Part shown: positions 7,373-48,751 of the stretch, piece after piece | Layout of the letters: each line of letters opens with the position of its first letter | How positions within the stretch are numbered: position 1 is the first letter of the stretch | DNA from: Clostridiaceae bacterium BRH_c20a | GTDB lineage: Bacteria > Bacillota > Peptococcia > Peptococcales > BICA1-8 | Reading direction: 5' to 3' | DNA length: 64,000 nucleotides | NCBI GenBank assembly: GCA_000961765.1 | Contig: LADT01000019.1 | Coordinates: 7,110 to 71,109, forward strand | Program-made: the position numbers and the translations under genes | The notes under the pieces: generated by a model | What the model was told of the DNA's origin: nothing | What the model saw: the letters and a program-made list of their open reading frames with translations, nothing else | The model's database searches: none

Positions 7373-7422
7373 TTTTTGCGAAAAAGGATGTTCGCAAAAA
7401 AAAACAAAAAAAACAGGGAGGA
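7373..7422 (+). promoter_or_regulatory. flagellin mRNA leader with two CsrA-type sites
   Basis: Hairpin TTTTTGCGAA-AAAGGATG-TTCGCAAAAA (7373-7400, GGA in loop) plus SD AGGGAGGA (7415-7422); same two-site layout as the B. subtilis hag leader. Confidence 0.6.
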
Positions 7423-7429
7423 ATTATTA

Positions 7430-10400
7430 ATGAGAATTAACAACAACTTAATGGCAATGAATACCCATCGTCAGTTGGGTATGAACCAAGCAGGTGGTGC
7501 CAAATCTTTAGAAAAGCTTTCATCAGGCTTAAGGATTAACAGAGCTGGTGATGATGCGGCAGGCTTGGCAATCAGTGAAAAAATGAGAGGTCAGATTCGG
7601 GGCTTGAACCAGGCTACAAGAAATGCCCAAGATGGTATTTCTCTAATTCAAACTGCAGAAGGTGCTTTACAAGAAACCCATGCTATTTTACAGAGAATGA
7701 GAGAATTGGGAGTGCAGGCAGGTACAGATGTAGTTACTGATTCTGACAGGCAAAATATTCAATCTGAGATTGATCAGCTAACTAATGAAATCTCAAGGAT
7801 TTCAAACACTACCGAGTTTAACCAGAATAATTTATTAGCCGGTGGATTTAATGACAAAAGTGTTCTGATTGGTGCAAACCAGGGTCAAAACGTTTCTTTT
7901 TCTATTGGCAAGATGGATGCTAAGAGTTTAGGTGTAACTAGCGATGTAATTACCGCAAATATCGCAAATGATTCAGCAGGAATTAGTGCTGCCGTTCTTC
8001 GTGATGGCACTGGAGCAGCTCAATATGCAGGTCAAACTATAGGAATCACAAGTACACTCTTGCAAGCTGATAGCGCTGGTCAACTACAGGGTTCTAGTGC
8101 CGCCCAAACTATCAATGATGCTCAAGCAGCAGAAGCCGTTGCAACAGCTGTTTTTGGTGCAGGTGCGGATGCAACTTCAGCGAGCATTAATGCATATAAG
8201 GCAATGAATACAGCTGCCACCTATGCAACTGGAACAATTGATGCTAGCAGTAATGGTACTTTGACTGCGGCTAGTCAAGCTACTTATGTGACTGGAGCTA
8301 TTGATGCAAATGCTTTAACAGATGCTACAGATCAAGTATTTACATTTACCATGGAAGGTGTAAACGGTGGAAATGGCGTAGGAGTTGCCTTTGATATTAC
8401 TGTTACTGCTGGTACTGATTGGACTCAAGGCGTTGACCAGGATACAGATGGTGCAAGTTTAGCAGCTGCGCTACAACTTAAACTTTCTGGTAAGGTGGGT
8501 GAGTCTGTAACGGTTGACTACGATAGTGGCAATGACACATTAACTTTTACTAGAGGTGTAACAGGCGACAATAATTTAATAACATTAACAAATGTTACAG
8601 ATAATGGAGCCGGAGTTGCAGCTTTTACTACAGATGGTGTAGCTGCGGACGGTACCAACGGGACAACAACATTTAACTTCACCATGGCAGGCGTAAACGG
8701 TGGAAATGGCGTAGGTGCTGCTTTTAATGTTACTCTTACTGAAGGTGTCGATTGGACCCAGAATGGTGTTCAAGATGATTCTGGCACCTCCCTAGCTGCT
8801 GCCCTATCAACTAAACTTTCTGCAATTGCGGGTCAGGCTATAACTGCCAATTATGATACTGCTACTGATGCTATGACTTTCACTACAGCCCAAAAAGGCA
8901 GCGACCAGTCAATTGTACTAAACTCAGTTACTAATGAAGCAACTGCTACTGTAGCAGGATTTACTGAAGGTGTAGCAGCTACTGCTGGTACAGGTACAGG
9001 CTCTGTTGATGGTACCGGCTACGGCGTGGTCAGAATGAGCATTGATGATACCGCCTTTAATGTTACTATTAATGAAAGTTCGACACTAGCCAATGTGTTA
9101 GATAATATCAATTCTGCAGCTAATACTGCTTTAGGAACTACTGGCGTAACCTATGCTAGTGAGGACACGGGTAGTATAGTTATTACTTCAAATACCGACA
9201 GCACTGGTTCTTCAGTTAAAATTATCGGCGACTTTGAGTCTGATGGTACAACTTCCGCTAACGGTGCCCTTTTGCAAAACTTAGGTCTTTCTCTTAGTGC
9301 TACTAGTCAGACAGGGATGTCCGATGTAGGAGCAAGTGGAACAGCAGGAACATTTAGCTTAACTGTAAATGGTACTTCCTTTGATGTTACACTCCAAGAT
9401 GGTGATGATATTGACGCTGTGACAACAGCTATAAATGCTGCTGCTGAAACTGCCGGCGTTATCGATAATGGTGATGCGTTGGCTGCTAATGATGGTACAA
9501 TAATTACTTTAACTTCTTCTGATGTAAAAACCGGAGCTGGGACTGGCTCAAATGCCAATATCATTATTGGAGAAGACGATAATGGGGGTAAAACTTTAGC
9601 AGCACTAGGACTTACTTCAGGAACATATGGGGGTGCAGATGCTACTTCCGGTTCTTTAAGGATAGCTATCGATGGTACTGAATTTTCAGTAGGGTTAACT
9701 GATGGAAGTGATGCAACTGCTGTAGCCAATGCTATTAATGCTTCTGCTAATACCGCCCTTGGAACCTCAAGTCAGAACTATGCCTCAGTTAGTCAAGGAA
9801 AATTAGTTATTGAATCTCTTACTTCTGGAAGTAATTCTTCAGTAGGAATTTTAAATGATAATACCTCCGGTAGGACTATTGAAGCCTTAGGCTTACAAGT
9901 GGGAACAGTCTCAGGAGCAAACACGGGGCAATTACAGGTTGTTGCTTCTGTAGGTGGGGCTTCAGAAAGTGTAGCAATTGATACGAATGCAGATATAATT
10001 AAATTTAGTCAGGCTTTTGCAGGCTTAACCTTAACAAAAGATGCTGCCCATAATACAGCTGGAACTGCTGATATTGCAACTTCTGTTTTAAAGTCAGAAG
10101 CAGCTGCTATGACTACTGACGGACGTATTAAATCAGAAGCTAGTGTACAAAAGGGTATACTAGTGGATACAGCAGACGCTGCCAACAAAGCGGTTACAGC
10201 GATAAATAATGCAATAGCTAGTGTGTCTGATCAACGCTCAGCTTTAGGTGCTTTACAAAATAGATTAGAGCATACTATTAGCAACTTGGGTGCATCAGCT
10301 GAAAACTTACAAGCTGCTGAATCTCGAGTCAGAGATGTGGACATGGCTGCCGAAATGATGCAGTTCACTAAGAATAATATCCTGCAACAAGCAGCAACTG

Positions 10401-10456
10401 CAATGCTGGCTCAAGCAAACCAAGCACCACAAGGAGTACTGCAGCTTCTTAGATAA
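7430..10456 (+). CDS. fliC: giant flagellin (1008 aa)
   Basis: ATG 7430 with a good SD; the ORF-track TTG 7376 lies inside the leader hairpin. N-terminal MRINNNLMAMNTHRQL..LRINRAGDDAAGLAISEKMR. C-terminal LGALQNRLEHTISNL..MAAEMMQFTKNNILQQAATAMLAQANQAPQGVLQLLR. About 730-aa Thr/Ala/Gly-rich insert. Confidence 0.95.
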   Translation: MRINNNLMAMNTHRQLGMNQAGGAKSLEKLSSGLRINRAGDDAAGLAISEKMRGQIRGLNQATRNAQDGISLIQTAEGALQETHAILQRMRELGVQAGTDVVTDSDRQNIQSEIDQLTNEISRISNTTEFNQNNLLAGGFNDKSVLIGANQGQNVSFSIGKMDAKSLGVTSDVITANIANDSAGISAAVLRDGTGAAQYAGQTIGITSTLLQADSAGQLQGSSAAQTINDAQAAEAVATAVFGAGADATSASINAYKAMNTAATYATGTIDASSNGTLTAASQATYVTGAIDANALTDATDQVFTFTMEGVNGGNGVGVAFDITVTAGTDWTQGVDQDTDGASLAAALQLKLSGKVGESVTVDYDSGNDTLTFTRGVTGDNNLITLTNVTDNGAGVAAFTTDGVAADGTNGTTTFNFTMAGVNGGNGVGAAFNVTLTEGVDWTQNGVQDDSGTSLAAALSTKLSAIAGQAITANYDTATDAMTFTTAQKGSDQSIVLNSVTNEATATVAGFTEGVAATAGTGTGSVDGTGYGVVRMSIDDTAFNVTINESSTLANVLDNINSAANTALGTTGVTYASEDTGSIVITSNTDSTGSSVKIIGDFESDGTTSANGALLQNLGLSLSATSQTGMSDVGASGTAGTFSLTVNGTSFDVTLQDGDDIDAVTTAINAAAETAGVIDNGDALAANDGTIITLTSSDVKTGAGTGSNANIIIGEDDNGGKTLAALGLTSGTYGGADATSGSLRIAIDGTEFSVGLTDGSDATAVANAINASANTALGTSSQNYASVSQGKLVIESLTSGSNSSVGILNDNTSGRTIEALGLQVGTVSGANTGQLQVVASVGGASESVAIDTNADIIKFSQAFAGLTLTKDAAHNTAGTADIATSVLKSEAAAMTTDGRIKSEASVQKGILVDTADAANKAVTAINNAIASVSDQRSALGALQNRLEHTISNLGASAENLQAAESRVRDVDMAAEMMQFTKNNILQQAATAMLAQANQAPQGVLQLLR
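8336..9001 (+). repeat. intragenic tandem duplication, two ~111-aa units in the flagellin variable region
   Basis: FTMEGVNGGNGVGVAFDITVTAGTDWTQ versus FTMAGVNGGNGVGAAFNVTLTEGVDWTQ; period 333 nt. Confidence 0.85.
9026..10040 (+). repeat. three to four ~90-aa flagellin-IN-motif-like units
   Basis: MSIDDTAFNVTI.., LTVNGTSFDVTL.., IAIDGTEFSVGL.., VAIDTNADIIKF.. Each is followed by ..A..IN..A.. and ..LGL.. patterns. Confidence 0.65.
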
Positions 10457-39482: not shown

Positions 39483-40217
39483 ATGTGGAGAGTGGGTGTT
39501 TTGCAAACACCACGGGAAAGTCATAGATTTCATATTCTAGAAGTAATTGAAAAAAGTGAAGCGCCCTTAGGTGCCAACCAGATAAAAAAGGAACTGTCCA
39601 GTTTAGGGTTAAATATTAGTGAAGCAACTGTTGGCAGGGTTTTATTCGGTCTGGATCAGGAGACCCTAACTAAAAAAGAGGGCTTTAAAGGCAGGATTTT
39701 AACAGAACAAGGGCAAAATGCTTTACGGGAAATGCGTATTCAGCGGGAAAGAAAAGAATATGGTGAAGAGTTTTTTAAAGTTTTAGATAGTACCTCTGAA
39801 GCCGAATTAGTCGAGATTCTAGTTGCCAGGAGAGTTATTGAGAGTCAATTAGCTAGGATGGCAGCATTGCATATTACACCAGAAATTGCCCAGGAAATGC
39901 AAGATACCATCGATCGACAGGCAAAGTATAGTAAAAAGGGTATTGCGGCCGAATATGATGTCCAGTTTCATAAGCTTATTTCCCGGTCAGCAGGTAATAA
40001 AGTTCTTGATGCTATGCTGGATCTAATCAGGCAAGATGGGCAACTCACTCCTGCTTTAGAGTATATTCGCAAAAAGGTTAAAAGTAGTATAATTGTGGAC
40101 CATAAGAAGATTATGGAGGCCATTATTAATAAAGATCCTAATACCGCTGAAAAGGCAATGATTGAGCATATGGATAATTTAATTCGAGATGTAAATAAAT
40201 ACTGGGGTAAGATGTAA
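39483..40217 (+). CDS. winged-helix plus FCD (FadR C-terminal type) domain transcriptional regulator
   Basis: 244 aa; the C-terminal half (LVARRVIESQLARMAAL..FHKLISRSAGNKVL..DHKKIMEAI) fits the FCD domain; start may be TTG 39501. Confidence 0.7.
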   Translation: MWRVGVLQTPRESHRFHILEVIEKSEAPLGANQIKKELSSLGLNISEATVGRVLFGLDQETLTKKEGFKGRILTEQGQNALREMRIQRERKEYGEEFFKVLDSTSEAELVEILVARRVIESQLARMAALHITPEIAQEMQDTIDRQAKYSKKGIAAEYDVQFHKLISRSAGNKVLDAMLDLIRQDGQLTPALEYIRKKVKSSIIVDHKKIMEAIINKDPNTAEKAMIEHMDNLIRDVNKYWGKM

Positions 40218-40344
40218 GAACCCCGAGAAATGATTAGTGTCTAATTAAAAATTAAAGATTTATTTTTTAGAACCCTGCAGTTTTGCGGGGTTCTTTAGGT
40301 TTTAAAAAAATATGGTTTATTATAATTATTTTTGAAAATTATGA

Positions 40345-40424: not shown

Positions 40425-40865
40425 ATGGTAGCAATAGATCCTTATAAAGCAGGAATGTTTAAAACTGATCCTTATGTGGTTAAAAGAAGTATAAAGGGTG
40501 AATTGGTAGTTGTTTTGGATGGTTATATGGAAAATAGAGGGCTTAAGCTTATCGCACCTATTTCCCGCTGTATTTTAAAAAATGAAATCCATGAATTGCT
40601 TTTTACCGATGAAATTGATGCAGGTCCAGGAATGAGCGTTGACAAAATTTCCTACCTAGGTTTTTTTGAAGTTGAACAGGGTAGTGTGATGGTGTCTGGT
40701 GATGAAGTATTCTTAAACAATCAACTTATCGGTCATATTGCCGGTTTTGATGAAACCCATATGCCAAATCATCTTAATATTATTATGAAGCGCCAAAATA
40801 GGTTAACGGGAGTAGAATTGGGTTGTAGTATTGGTGATACAATTACATTTCAAAAGCCTAAATAA
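40425..40865 (+). CDS. small protein of unknown function (faint glucitol-IIA-like beta-barrel pattern)
   Basis: 146 aa; GHIAGFDETHMPNHLNIIM..IGDTITF loosely recalls SrlB-type GHxTLxFDG..PG..L.F. Confidence 0.55.
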   Translation: MVAIDPYKAGMFKTDPYVVKRSIKGELVVVLDGYMENRGLKLIAPISRCILKNEIHELLFTDEIDAGPGMSVDKISYLGFFEVEQGSVMVSGDEVFLNNQLIGHIAGFDETHMPNHLNIIMKRQNRLTGVELGCSIGDTITFQKPK

Positions 40866-40966
40866 TAAAGTATATATTTTTTACTAGTTCATTGATAATA
40901 ATTATCGTTATCATTGTTCAGTATTTAAAAGTTGAATATTTAAATATTCTGAAAGGAGGTGTAATA

Positions 40967-41428
40967 GTGAGTTTTGAGGAACGAATTAAAGAATTGGGAC
41001 TTGAGTTGCCGGAAGCACCTAAACCGGTAGCAGCATATGTACCTGCTGTTTTAGTTGATAAATATATCTATACTTCTGGGCAAATTCCTTTTGTTAATGG
41101 TGAATTAAAGTTTAAAGGAAAAATAGGCCAAGAGCTAAACGAGCAAGAAGGATATGAAGCTGCAAAGGTTTGTGCTTTAAACTGTTTAAGTGTAATAAAA
41201 AGTGTTATAGGTGATTTAGACAAAATAGACCGGGTTATAAAAGTAAATGGCTTTGTAGCCAGTGCGGCAGGTTTTAATATGCAGCCTAAGGTAATAAATG
41301 GTGCATCAGAGTTAATAGGTCAAATATTTGGTGATCAAGGACAGCATGCCCGCGCAGCGGTAGGAGTAAATGAGCTGCCTTTAGATTCTGCCTGTGAGGT
41401 TGAGATGATAGTAAAGATTAAAGGTTAA
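40967..41428 (+). CDS. RidA/YjgF-family enamine/imine deaminase
   Basis: 154 aa from GTG 40967 (SD AAGGAGG 7 nt upstream); YTSGQIPF, ARAAVGVNELPLDSACEVEMIV. Confidence 0.85.
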   Translation: MSFEERIKELGLELPEAPKPVAAYVPAVLVDKYIYTSGQIPFVNGELKFKGKIGQELNEQEGYEAAKVCALNCLSVIKSVIGDLDKIDRVIKVNGFVASAAGFNMQPKVINGASELIGQIFGDQGQHARAAVGVNELPLDSACEVEMIVKIKG

Positions 41429-44811: not shown

Positions 44812-45063
44812 ATGACTGTGACTGATGCTTTAAAGAGAGTAATAGATGCTTTAGACGTAGAAACTTTCTTAGTCTGTGAGAGTGAAGAAGAGGGTAAAAA
44901 GTTAGCATTAGCTATGATGAAAAACCTGGGCTTTAAGGATGTAGATCTGGTATTTATTGAATTTATTGGTTCGGGAGCAAGAATTAGGGCTAGGGCCTAT
45001 ATGCACCGACCAGGGGATCAATATGGGTGGTTATTTGCTGAGGAGGTAAAAGGTAATGACTAA
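44812..45063 (+). CDS. 83-aa protein of unknown function, translationally coupled to the mutase
   Basis: ORF with SD TGGGGG; its stop overlaps the next start in ATGACTAA (8-nt overlap). Confidence 0.65.
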   Translation: MTVTDALKRVIDALDVETFLVCESEEEGKKLALAMMKNLGFKDVDLVFIEFIGSGARIRARAYMHRPGDQYGWLFAEEVKGND

Positions 45064-46873
45064 AAAGGTTTTGTTATCCCCTTTAGACCCCGTTCATGAT
45101 ATAGGATTAAAAATGATAAAGAGGGGTCTTAATGAAGCCGGTCTAGAAACAAAATTACTGCCTCCTGATACTCCGGCGGAAGAAATTATTCGTATTTGTA
45201 TGGAAGGAAGCTTTGATACCCTGCTTTTAAGCCGCACTTTAGGTTATGGAGTTGCTGAATTGTTAGCCCGCTTTGTAGATTTGGCGGATGCCGCAGGCTT
45301 GAGAGATAATGTCCGTATAGGTATTGGTGGTATGGCTGTTCGGCCGGAAATTGCAGCAGAATTAGGCTTTGATGCTGGATTTGGCCCGGGAACTACAGTG
45401 GAGGAAGCGGTTGCTTTTGTGGAGGGGAGGGAATATAGTCCCCAAGAAAATGAAATAAAAAAGGAAAAGGTGGATATTGCCTCCCCTTATACGTACCACT
45501 ATAAGAATCAAAAGATAGGTAGTTTATTAGAAAAAATAACCATGCAGATTATAGCCTGGGCTGCTAATAAAACATCTCCGGGGGTAGAAAGGGCTAAACT
45601 TAGAGAAAATGATTGGGATTATCAGGCCTTTCTAAAGAAAGAGGATGACAGTAAGTTTTATAAACACTATGCCCAATTATGTGATCAAATTCCAAAGGAT
45701 TTTTATCTCAAGGGAGTAATGCATCCTAAAACTAGAGAGCTCTCTAAGGATGAACTTATCAGTCTAAATACCTATATTAGTAATATGCAAAAACAGATGA
45801 AGGTTAAAAAGCTGCAGCATACTAAGAAGCTGCCTATAGTTTGGAACCAGTATGGCACGGGATGTCCCTTTATGGATATTGCTCATGTTAAGGCTAGTGA
45901 AGGATGGGGTGCTGACGGTGTAGTTCATTTTGACCCTTCATGGGGGGCTAGAACCGAAGGCTTTTTAAACGGTAACCTCACTCATCAGGAGGATGGTACA
46001 GTTATCACTCCTAATAATTTATATAGAATTCATAGGATGTTGGAAAAATCCACTTTATGGCAGGTAAGGGCTCACCGAGGTTTAAATACAGCTGAAACCG
46101 TTGTTTTGGCCGGTAAAATAGGTGCAGACTTAACTAAGATTAATATCTGTTATGGGTCGTTGGCGGCCGGTACAGATCCTGCCCGTTTAACTATAGATGC
46201 TTTTCATGCCATCAAATATGCTGCTAAATATAAAATGCCCTTTGATGTTGTTACAAATGAGGAATTAACCGGAGTTCCAGCTTATAAAGCTTTTGCCGGG
46301 ATGCTGATAGTAGCAGATCTGGCGGTAAGATTAGGAGCTAAGCCTATACTGCAGCCTTTATTTGCCTTCTCACCGGAGGTAATGGTAAGTGGACAGATGG
46401 ATGATAACTATATTGATTTTAATGCCGCCAAAATATATGCATTGAGAAGTATAGTTGATGCTCCAATTTGGCCAGGTGCACCTATCGGGTTTTTAACCCA
46501 GACCGAAGATAGGGTGCAATCCTCTCTATCTACAGCTCTGCATGCACTTTTAGCGACAAGCTTAGGTGTTGATGCAATATCCATTGCTTCTGCTGATGAA
46601 GCATACTCAGGAGGACCTATAAGTATACCTTCTAAAATTGATACCTTAAGAGGTGTGGAGGAAAGCTTCAGATTCTTAGGTCTTGCAGGAATAAAACCTA
46701 CAGAAAAGGCTCAAATCTGGCAGGAACAGATGGTTATAGGGATTGAAAATGTTCTTTCTCAGATTGCAGAACAGGGGGACTTCGTTCAATCATTATATGA
46801 TGGTGTCTTAGGAAGCAAAGAAGAAGGGGCCTTCCCTGGTAGGGCCGGATATAATACCGTTCGGGAAGAATAA
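45056..46873 (+). CDS. cobalamin-binding-domain fusion protein, putative B12-dependent mutase
   Basis: 605 aa. Residues 1-125 parallel glutamate mutase S (KKVLLSPLDPVHDIGLKMI; LLLSRTLGYG; GIGGMAV; GFGPGTTVEEAVAFV). In the ~470-aa C-terminal domain, WGADGVVHFDPSWGAR, WQVRAHRGLNT and SADEAYSGGPISIPS faintly parallel MutE segments. Confidence 0.65.
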   Translation: MTKKVLLSPLDPVHDIGLKMIKRGLNEAGLETKLLPPDTPAEEIIRICMEGSFDTLLLSRTLGYGVAELLARFVDLADAAGLRDNVRIGIGGMAVRPEIAAELGFDAGFGPGTTVEEAVAFVEGREYSPQENEIKKEKVDIASPYTYHYKNQKIGSLLEKITMQIIAWAANKTSPGVERAKLRENDWDYQAFLKKEDDSKFYKHYAQLCDQIPKDFYLKGVMHPKTRELSKDELISLNTYISNMQKQMKVKKLQHTKKLPIVWNQYGTGCPFMDIAHVKASEGWGADGVVHFDPSWGARTEGFLNGNLTHQEDGTVITPNNLYRIHRMLEKSTLWQVRAHRGLNTAETVVLAGKIGADLTKINICYGSLAAGTDPARLTIDAFHAIKYAAKYKMPFDVVTNEELTGVPAYKAFAGMLIVADLAVRLGAKPILQPLFAFSPEVMVSGQMDDNYIDFNAAKIYALRSIVDAPIWPGAPIGFLTQTEDRVQSSLSTALHALLATSLGVDAISIASADEAYSGGPISIPSKIDTLRGVEESFRFLGLAGIKPTEKAQIWQEQMVIGIENVLSQIAEQGDFVQSLYDGVLGSKEEGAFPGRAGYNTVREE

Positions 46874-46874
46874 T

Positions 46875-47894
46875 ATGGCCGTTATACTAGGTATTGCGGG
46901 AACAGCTAAAAATACAGGCAAAACCACTACTACCAAAGCGATTATGGACCAAGTACAACAGGATAAGAACAGGTTATTGGGCTTAACTAGCATTGGGTAT
47001 GACGGTGAGGATATGGATAATATTACCGGATTACCCAAGCCAAAAATTGAGGTCTGGCCCGGGGCACTTGTAGCTGTAGCTGAGCGAAGTCTTGAGGTTA
47101 GTTCAGCTCAAATTCAATTGCTGGAAAAAACCGATATAGCTACACCCTTGGGTAAAATAATTCTGGGAAAAGTTATTAAAAGTGGCACACTTCTTATCGC
47201 TGGACCAAATAAGAGTAAGGAACTGCGCCGGATTTTACCTCTCTTACAGCATTATGGGGCCAATTTTATAATTGTTGACGGAGCTTTAAACCGGATAGCG
47301 CCCATGGTTGAGGTAAATAGTTTAATACTAGCTACTGGAGCGGCTAAAACATCTAACCTAACTGATCTTGCTTGGGAAACAAAACATCTTGTGGAAATCC
47401 TCCAATACCCAGTTTTCCCTAAAACTGAGAATATGGTCAATGTGGATTCGATACTGGACATCCAAGCTGCTCAAAGGCTAACTGCTATTCTATTAAATAA
47501 TCAAGGAGTAGTAATTAATGGTGTAATCAGCTCACAGGGCCTTGAGTACTTAATTCAGGCAGGGGAAGAGCTAAAGGGAAAAATGCTGATTTTACCTGAT
47601 GCCATAAAGCTTTTAGTCTGTGGTGAGGTTAGACATATTTATAACCTTCTTACTCGCTTAAAAAATTTTGGTCTGGAAATAGGGGTAAAAAAAGAAGTTC
47701 GGGTGACGGCTCTTACAGTAAACCCCTATTACCCCCAATTCCGCTTTTCCTCTAATGATTATCAAGCAGCATATGTGGACCAGGGACTACTCTATGAAAG
47801 CATCACGAACAGTGTCAATATCCCCGTATTTGATATAGTTGAAGAAGGGGGCCATAAACTCTACGAAGTAATAGTGGAAAAAGAAATATATTGA
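46875..47894 (+). CDS. BioD/CobQ/CbiA-type P-loop ATPase-like protein
   Basis: 339 aa; starts 1 nt after the mutase stop; GIAGTAKNTGKTTT fits GTxxxxGK[ST] of dethiobiotin synthetase/CobQ; FIIVDGALN parallels the EGAGG strand. Confidence 0.55.
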   Translation: MAVILGIAGTAKNTGKTTTTKAIMDQVQQDKNRLLGLTSIGYDGEDMDNITGLPKPKIEVWPGALVAVAERSLEVSSAQIQLLEKTDIATPLGKIILGKVIKSGTLLIAGPNKSKELRRILPLLQHYGANFIIVDGALNRIAPMVEVNSLILATGAAKTSNLTDLAWETKHLVEILQYPVFPKTENMVNVDSILDIQAAQRLTAILLNNQGVVINGVISSQGLEYLIQAGEELKGKMLILPDAIKLLVCGEVRHIYNLLTRLKNFGLEIGVKKEVRVTALTVNPYYPQFRFSSNDYQAAYVDQGLLYESITNSVNIPVFDIVEEGGHKLYEVIVEKEIY

Positions 47895-47913: not shown

Positions 47914-47937
47914 AAAAAACGCCCTAGGGCGTTTTTT
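47914..47937. terminator. bidirectional terminator
   Basis: AAAAAACGCCC-TA-GGGCGTTTTTT between convergent genes; overlaps the minus-strand stop codon. Confidence 0.85.
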
Positions 47938-48751
47938 AAGTTGCATCATTATTTACGCAAATAAAGGTTTTACGGTTTTTCTCCTGCCAGACATAAGAAA
48001 GAAGTTTTTTCTGAAGTGCCGGTGTATTTATACTGATTATAGTATCATAATGGAGTTCTTTAATCTCGGTTAGCTTTTCGAAAGAAATTACTTTATCGGC
48101 AGCGGTAGACAATAACTGATTAACGATTTTATGAGAAAAAGGGCCTATTACTTTAACTGTTTTACCTTTTGCTTTCAACTCATCAATTAAGGATTTTACC
48201 ATCCCCAGCCAAAAACCATCAACACAGACAATTACATCCTGCATCTTACCCCAAGGCAGCTCTGGTAATGCTGGTCCTTGAGGTTTTAATTCAAGTATTG
48301 TTCCTTTTGCTACCAGAGGGCCGTATTTCAAAGGAATCTCATAATTAGTATCCATAATGATAAGAGAAATCAAGTTTTGCTCTGGTACAACTTTTGAAAT
48401 TACACCGGACATAGCAATGGTTTTATTAAAATTTTGGGTAGTAATTTTGACAAATTGAAAGGCTTGAATATTTTGCAAATGACTAGGAATAAAGCAGACA
48501 AGCTTGAGAAAATCCTTTTCACTTATTTTCTGCAGTACTTCAATCTTATCGTTAGAAGTTTTGGATAATTGAGAACCATTGGTTAGATAGGACTGATAAA
48601 TACACATTCCTGCCCAGTTTAGGCTGCAATCACAGCTTTGGCCATGATTTAGAATATTGCATACGGGGCAGTCCCCAGTAACAGCAGCAGCACAGGGGCA
48701 TTTCTCAGTTGCTGCATCCAGGCAGGCCTTTTCTACAGGTAAAGTATTCAT
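47936..48751 (-). CDS. Cys-rich protein with possible ferredoxin-reductase-like C-terminal part
   Basis: 271 aa; 8 Cys within residues 10-50 (CLDAATEKCPCAAAVTGDCPVCNILNHGQSCDCSLNWAGMC); remainder weakly PyrK/FNR-like. Confidence 0.5.
   Translation of the reverse strand: MNTLPVEKACLDAATEKCPCAAAVTGDCPVCNILNHGQSCDCSLNWAGMCIYQSYLTNGSQLSKTSNDKIEVLQKISEKDFLKLVCFIPSHLQNIQAFQFVKITTQNFNKTIAMSGVISKVVPEQNLISLIIMDTNYEIPLKYGPLVAKGTILELKPQGPALPELPWGKMQDVIVCVDGFWLGMVKSLIDELKAKGKTVKVIGPFSHKIVNQLLSTAADKVISFEKLTEIKELHYDTIISINTPALQKKLLSYVWQEKNRKTFICVNNDAT

Follow-up and report, generated by a model that had tools for sequence, protein, structure and literature searches.

What does a P-loop protein do that is encoded directly behind a B12-dependent mutase and belongs to neither of the chaperone types known for such enzymes? 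This question is raised by three adjacent genes of Clostridiaceae bacterium BRH_c20a, located at positions 44812-47894 of a 64-kb stretch of contig LADT01000019.1 (“the window”), which encode an 83-amino-acid (aa) protein, a 605-aa mutase and a 339-aa P-loop protein. An original prediction, made from the DNA sequence alone, had proposed for the third protein either a new type of reactivase or cofactor-loading factor, or an adenosine triphosphate (ATP)-dependent enzyme activating amide or carboxyl groups. The analysis presented here leads to an answer that we consider fairly probable, namely, that the 83-aa and 605-aa proteins constitute an adenosylcobalamin (AdoCbl)-dependent isomerase of the aminomutase superfamily, which is serviced by a single-component ATPase of the KamB type. 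The KamB family as such is known; the novelty lies in the entire system—a tightly conserved and permuted, aminomutase-like enzyme devoid of the lysine that anchors pyridoxal phosphate (PLP), together with a KamB-only accessory protein in an uncharacterised, conserved gene cluster.

A suitable system for comparison is lysine 5,6-aminomutase, whose core enzyme E1 (KamDE) undergoes suicide inactivation and has an auxiliary, ATP-dependent protein E2 of ~80 kDa, for which an AdoCbl-synthetase activity with movement of label from ATP to E1 has been reported (PMC3958899). The mass of E2 corresponds roughly to KamB plus KamC (338 + 487 aa). In the lysine pathway paper of 2011, kamB and kamC had no assigned catalytic role and were labelled ‘HP’ and ‘mutS’ (PMC3149608). 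Canonical kam operons for reference were taken from Fusobacterium vincentii and Acetoanaerobium noterae, both from chromosomes that are filed as plasmids in PLSDB; in both genomes, the gene order is kamA, kamB (338-340 aa), kamC (487-496 aa; a MutS2-like ATPase, NF052383), kamD, and kamE. The PLSDB records (L085, NZ_CP084075.1, and L086/L087, NZ_CP154629.1), 2.1 and 2.6 Mb in size, are evidently chromosomes, with operons for the fermentation of lysine and ornithine.

The 339-aa protein is a SIMIBI-class P-loop nucleoside triphosphatase (NTPase) of the KamB family, hence, a member of an already named family and not the new type of factor that had been anticipated. It matches the NCBIfam model NF052386 (“lysine 5,6-aminomutase reactivase subunit KamB”) with 216.1 bits (cutoff 210; E 6e-64) in two stretches, the best of which spans aa 6-186, and the same model is matched by 30 out of 30 sampled homologues (best E 1e-76). 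Over ~305 aligned residues, it is 28-29% identical to the KamB proteins encoded in the kamABCDE operons of F. vincentii and A. noterae, with which it has the motifs GxxKNxGKTT, LGLTSIGxDGE, IAGP, VDGAxxR, TGAA, and NPxxP in common. Residues 9-18 (nt 46899-46928) form the Walker A motif GTAKNTGKTT (P-loop GIAGTAKNTGKTTT), which has the G-x5-GK[ST] spacing that had initially been read as BioD/CobQ-like. Given that its residues G9, T10, K12, N13, G15, K16, T17, and T18 as well as a Walker-B-like VDGALNR motif are invariant in an alignment of 30 homologues, an active NTPase is plausible. The guanine-specificity motif NKxD is found in none of these homologues, which is consistent with ATP as the nucleotide.

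The AlphaFold2 (AF2) model of the 339-aa protein, with a predicted local distance difference test score (pLDDT) of 90.5, contains an extra beta-insertion and a second alpha/beta domain, which is large and conserved. Structural classification places the protein in the SIMIBI class, albeit through weak and generic Foldseek matches (ParA, MinD, SRP, NifH), whose low template modelling (TM) score of ~0.28 is explained by the several domains of the protein; a solved relative detectable by sequence is missing from the PDB. The extended Walker A spacing and the SIMIBI fold are common to dethiobiotin synthetase, CobQ, CbiA, and MobB. These features, the large second domain, the occurrence of CTP synthetase among the weak fold matches, and a weak Pfam match to CbiA (E 0.041; 14 bits versus a cutoff of 25.4) would also suit an enzyme of the pathway itself, performing an ATP-dependent carboxyl or carbonyl activation of the dethiobiotin synthetase/CobQ type. 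However, the BioD, CobQ, and CbiA models all stay below significance, the genomic context gives a ligase role no support, and the KamB-like gene can be unlinked from the cluster (see below). To our knowledge, every catalytic step of the lysine fermentation pathway already has an assigned enzyme. The homologous KamB is itself encoded in the lysine fermentation operon, where it was labelled ‘HP’ (PMC3149608). On balance, a role in substrate activation, as entertained in the original prediction, appears improbable.

A different alternative starts from the same fold. The KamB-like protein might be a cofactor-loading or -gating chaperone, analogous to MeaB, or a factor forming AdoCbl for the new mutase, and have no part in repair. 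The SIMIBI class broadly includes the G3E chaperones, three homologues match the adapter NTPase MobB weakly and below threshold, and the historical E2 was reported to have AdoCbl-synthetase activity, with label passing from ATP to E1 (PMC3958899). MeaB/ArgK of methylmalonyl-CoA mutase, like DdrAB/GdrAB/EutA of the B12 eliminases, is presumed to do the same job, as a nucleotide-driven factor beside an inactivation-prone AdoCbl enzyme, and MeaB is likewise a SIMIBI P-loop protein. Yet, no MeaB/ArgK or GlmL/MutL model of Pfam or NCBIfam matches the 339-aa protein, which is in line with what had been claimed from the outset; as a positive control, the GlmL-type protein of the A. noterae ornithine operon strongly matches its own models. 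At the level of sequence families, the 339-aa protein is unrelated to the G proteins MeaB/ArgK and to the reactivases DdrAB/GdrAB/EutA. It further differs from MeaB in the missing NKxD motif, the beta-insertion and the second alpha/beta domain, and Pfam and NCBIfam scans detected no adenosyltransferase domain in it. We regard this alternative as unlikely; repair, exchange and loading of the cofactor are inseparable by sequence data.

The mutase assignment of the middle gene is borne out by two domains, the first of which is a B12-binding Rossmann domain of the KamE/OraE type. It provides the only Pfam match of the 605-aa protein (PF02310, aa 5-119), finds its nearest PDB sequences in KamE (8t0v, 9q1a, 1xrs) and OraE (3kow), and carries the ELG(F/Y)DAGFGPG signature that is also present in KamE. 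His14, which is invariant in the mutase family and lies within an invariant DPVHDIG motif, is the putative cobalt ligand of an enzyme that would use AdoCbl. This motif stands in place of the DxHxxG motif of the lysine enzyme, with Pro12 occupying the canonical Asp position. Besides, the PLP-anchoring Lys of KamE and OraE, eleven residues after the histidine (His+11), aligns with a nearly invariant Leu25 in the 605-aa family, and neither the IDIK segment of OraE nor the 9-residue insert further downstream in KamE has a counterpart in the alignment. The NCBIfam model of KamE gives 41 bits against a cutoff of 280, and that of KamD does not match the 605-aa protein.

The C-terminal part of ~480 aa matches no Pfam or NCBIfam model, and a phmmer search of this part against 1.84 billion representatives retrieved its own family only, with no remote relatives. 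With the AF2 model of the 605-aa protein, whose pLDDT reaches only 75.9, the best Foldseek match was the alpha subunit of lysine 5,6-aminomutase, KamD (1xrs_A; E 2e-14; TM 0.54/0.63), followed by 8t0v_A and 9q1a_C (E 2e-14 to 6e-12 over these three), OraE, glutamate mutase, and acyl-CoA mutases. An hhalign comparison with F. vincentii KamD yielded E 4e-5, with a (F/W)GA(T/R)TEGF motif present in both proteins. As judged from the model, this triosephosphate isomerase (TIM)-type barrel is the putative domain for substrate binding and radical chemistry. Based on the sequence matches to KamE/OraE on the one hand and the Foldseek and hhalign matches to KamD on the other, the 605-aa protein combines a KamD-like barrel with a Rossmann domain of the KamE type at the barrel's N-terminus; it is, thus, a distant, fused and permuted homologue of KamE/KamD, and not KamD/KamE proper.

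Faint similarities suggest that the 83-aa protein is probably the N-terminal dimerisation domain of KamE/OraE in the form of a separate chain. The Pfam model PF16554 (OAM_dimer) matches 20 of the 38 family members below threshold (best E 5e-4), and the best, albeit weak, hhalign alignments of the family profile, to KamE 45-72 (E 0.006) and OraE 524-577 (E 0.28), both fall in the dimerisation (OAM_dimer) domain of these proteins. No family model matches the 83-aa protein significantly, nor does its profile give a significant match among the PDB sequences. An OraS-like nature of the protein was rejected, there being no similarity to OraS.

With the lysine system, the locus has in common that a KamB-family P-loop protein is encoded with the mutase, that the KamE-type B12 domain and the KamD-like barrel carry the same signatures and that the genes overlap tightly; in contrast, the B12 domain is fused N-terminally to a barrel undetected by the KamD hidden Markov model (HMM), the dimerisation domain is probably a separate chain, and the pathway genes are wholly different, with no kamA, kdd, kce, or kal in the window. 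D-ornithine 4,5-aminomutase (OraS/OraE) offers a further parallel, since there, too, the gene of a small subunit overlaps that of the large B12 subunit, the barrel and Rossmann domains are related and the operon serves amino-acid catabolism. OraE, however, is arranged in the order barrel, dimerisation domain, and Rossmann domain, retains the PLP lysine, and has an ASKHA-type accessory protein of the GlmL kind, whereas a P-loop protein is found here.

All three open reading frames (ORFs) are real, conserved genes, as follows from their homologue families. In a word-index search, the P-loop protein has at least 1249 homologue clusters; the mutase has at least 1074, with 65-96% identity and a length of ~605 aa throughout, and the 83-aa protein has 38 (47-100% identity). 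Their tight coupling, as initially described, was confirmed. The stop of the 83-aa gene and the start of the mutase gene overlap by 8 nt (ATGACTAA), with GGAGG upstream, and a single nucleotide separates the mutase TAA from the ATG of the P-loop gene. On the 3′ side of the third gene, a perfect hairpin with a T-run (AAAAAACGCCCTAGGGCGTTTTTT; arms AAAAAACGCCC-TA-GGGCGTTTTTT) was read from the DNA, which appears to close the trio operon in a terminator-like manner; it is unlisted by the terminator scan on account of a loop of less than 3 nt. The promoter and terminator scan gave counts not above those from shuffled sequence, and a riboswitch search of the 37-49 kb part of the window found none.

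How firmly the KamB-like gene is tied to the mutase was assessed across genomes. When a single genome of each GTDB species was scanned, 340 KamB-like relatives emerged, of which the best 80 loci were kept; co-occurrence was scored within 10 kb in 83 KamB-like loci, and gene arrangement was derived from 82 informative ones. The mutase gene was present in 69 of the 83 loci and the small gene in 66, followed by genes for a 486-aa PLP enzyme (62), DUF6917 and a GidA-like flavin adenine dinucleotide (FAD) protein (60 each), RidA (53), a GntR/FCD regulator (43), and a transporter (27). The KamB-like gene stands immediately 3′ of the mutase in 48/82 loci, 3′ of it with a gap of 60-700 nt in four, and elsewhere in the cluster in 16, so that both genes reside in one cluster in 68/82 loci; in the other 14, the mutase is not within 10 kb. 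The small gene lies immediately 5′ of the mutase in 65/65 loci. Co-occurrence of the trio, therefore, holds in other genomes, and the placement of a KamB homologue beside a KamDE homologue mirrors the kamB...kamD-kamE order of the canonical operon. Stoichiometric co-production, which had been deduced from the gene overlaps, is unsafe for the third gene, because the place of the KamB-like gene differs from lineage to lineage: it may follow the mutase gene, precede the small gene or follow the FAD gene. Sporomusa acidovorans even has it unlinked, with the cluster lacking it (L084) and the gene present elsewhere on the chromosome (L071). The mutase family is spread over Peptococcaceae, Negativicutes, heliobacteria, Thermosediminibacter, and termite-gut Treponema and Adiutrix.

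Stand-alone KamB-like copies reside in other backbones, either deacetylase-DUF1015-GNAT-YgjP-KamB-YlbF-Fur or CofD-WhiA. The former backbone recurs in L010, L013-L030, and Zhaonella, and in a distance tree, stand-alone and in-cluster copies interleave; both observations could mean that KamB is a housekeeping protein unrelated to the mutase, beside which the mutase cluster has repeatedly been inserted. We give this explanation little credence, given that the gene order differs between lineages and the gene is in-cluster in 68/82 loci nevertheless, that the window is free of this backbone, and that the independent association of canonical KamB with KamDE makes chance adjacency unlikely. The stand-alone copies rather give the impression of one orthologue that was moved to another place.

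Several loci deserve mention in their own right. In L010 (6539-11014; a Clostridia metagenome-assembled genome), genes for RidA, the PLP enzyme, the FAD enzyme, and the KamB-like protein are found, with the small gene and the mutase gene not within 10 kb. In each of L013 (2771-5329) and L018 (2801-5353), a tandem pair of KamA-like genes, members of the lysine 2,3-aminomutase family whose identity to F. vincentii KamA is 60-63%, lies upstream of a stand-alone DUF1015-GNAT-YgjP-KamB-like block. Two complete, paralogous clusters per genome are represented by the pairs L004/L005, L006/L009, L007/L008, and L042/L064, with the two copies of Desulfosporosinus sp. OT lying ~17 kb apart on one contig; the pairing hints at two related substrates.

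In the window, the trio belongs to a conserved cluster of ~8 genes (Table 1), and the upstream order DUF6917-RidA-PLP-FAD is the same in Zhaonella and Sporomusa. This cluster, the fused and permuted nature of the KamE/KamD-like mutase, the resemblance of the 83-aa protein to a KamE domain, and the lack of KamC nearby had all escaped the original prediction.

Table 1. Features of the mutase cluster and their positions in the window.
Feature	Position	Strand	Basis
Transporter, 463 aa	38028-39419	+	cluster-associated
GntR/FCD regulator	39483-40217	+	Pfam FCD and helix-turn-helix
Terminator-like hairpin after transporter and regulator	40269-40294		terminator scan
DUF6917	40425-40865	+	Pfam/NCBIfam
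RidA-like	40892-41428	+	Pfam/NCBIfam
Fold-type-I PLP enzyme, 486 aa	41612-43072	+	Pfam/NCBIfam
GidA-like FAD protein, 426 aa	43357-44637	+	Pfam/NCBIfam; Cx6CxxCxxxCP motif
Putative small subunit gene, 83 aa	44812-45063	+	ORF, conserved family
Mutase gene, 605 aa	45056-46873	+	ORF
B12-binding Rossmann domain, KamE/OraE type (aa 1-125 of mutase)	45056-45430	+	Pfam PF02310, E 2.8e-11
KamD-like TIM barrel, ~480 aa (C-terminal part of mutase)	45431-46873	+	Foldseek, hhalign
KamB-family P-loop NTPase gene, 339 aa	46875-47894	+	ORF, NCBIfam NF052386
Hairpin and T-run, intrinsic terminator-like, bidirectional	47914-47937	.	read directly from sequence

Taken together, the 83-aa and 605-aa proteins would form an AdoCbl-dependent isomerase of the lysine/ornithine aminomutase superfamily with a permuted architecture. 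In view of its homology to KamB and of a linkage to a KamDE-like enzyme that recurs across loci, the KamB-like protein is most likely an ATP-driven factor that keeps this B12 enzyme loaded with intact cofactor; the reactivase or cofactor-loading role suggested early on is plausible and agrees with the existing annotation, but is not novel. ATP would serve to keep the mutase active, possibly by release or exchange of damaged cobalamin, or by aiding re-adenosylation after suicide inactivation, and the protein would work unaided by KamC, the MutS2-like partner that it has in the canonical lysine system. The enzyme would work in a catabolic setting, as RidA, the PLP enzyme, the FAD/Fe-S-like protein, the transporter, and the GntR regulator, which accompany DUF6917 in the cluster, suggest catabolism of an amino compound; the substrate, hence, probably bears an amino group.

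Several observations weigh against this interpretation. The score of the 339-aa protein barely exceeds the KamB cutoff, while canonical KamB proteins reach 360-388 bits. KamC, searched for by tblastn with two KamC queries, is encoded neither in the 64-kb window nor in 84 KamB-like loci with their 10-kb flanks; among the other large ORFs of the window, which are unrelated, a KamC candidate was likewise rejected. In addition, for 14 of the 82 KamB-like genes, no mutase lies in the 10-kb neighbourhood, and as these stand-alone copies sit in other backbones, a broader or different role of the protein is possible. The open literature yielded no paper that demonstrates the function of KamB, be it as a reactivase or otherwise, the name resting on NCBI curation, and no paper on the gene cluster either. 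Finally, the lack of the PLP lysine may mean a chemistry other than that of the known aminomutases.

The last point leads to a bolder interpretation, which we hold to be conceivable but doubtful, namely, that the locus represents a third, uncharacterised branch of B12 aminomutases, lacking the PLP lysine in the Rossmann domain, using KamB without KamC, and catalysing a rearrangement that is unassigned to any gene. The reaction could then be a 1,2-shift that is PLP-independent or relies on differently bound PLP, such as one of the orphan B12 aminomutase activities, which were described biochemically decades ago.

Among the neighbouring genes, the RidA ORF counted from TTG comprises 178 aa, while its homologues have ~152 aa; the true start is probably ~25 codons downstream of the TTG. 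The 426-aa FAD protein, whose nearest solved relatives are MnmG/GidA only (E ~1e-5), contains a ferredoxin-like Cys motif (CLKYGNGCAMCILRCP; Cx6CxxCxxxCP) suggestive of an iron-sulfur (Fe-S) cluster. On the minus strand, a gene that converges on the KamB-like one (47936-48751) encodes a protein of 271 aa whose N-terminus is rich in Cys (CPCAAAVTGDCPVCN...CDC). Over its first ~100 residues, this protein matches the N-terminal part of PRK05802 (‘sulfide/dihydroorotate dehydrogenase-like FAD/NAD-binding protein’; E 7e-15), and no Pfam or PDB match was found for the part beyond. Against PDB sequences, the 486-aa PLP enzyme and the 271-aa protein gave remote or no matches. The gene for the latter is present in 17/83 KamB-like loci, often directly downstream and co-directional (e.g., L033, L046, L057, L061, L065, L079), and its product could be an electron-transfer partner. 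Apart from the cluster, the window contains an unusually long ORF of the flagellin family (7376-10456; 1026 aa), whose N- and C-terminal regions match flagellin with E 7e-93.

Most members of the mutase family are currently annotated as ‘hypothetical protein’ or ‘cobalamin B12-binding domain-containing protein’, and a few wrongly bear the name of lysine aminomutase beta subunit or of methylmalonyl-CoA mutase cobalamin-binding domain/chain. AdoCbl-dependent isomerases comprise a very small set of enzyme types; a tightly conserved and widespread mutase family without the hallmark PLP lysine would be a promising place to look for new radical chemistry or an orphan activity. The KamB-only cluster, in turn, is a simpler setting in which to learn the function of the KamB family. 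Should the locus indeed represent a third branch of B12 aminomutases, the cluster would encode an anaerobic route of catabolism, hitherto undiscovered and present in hundreds of Firmicutes species.

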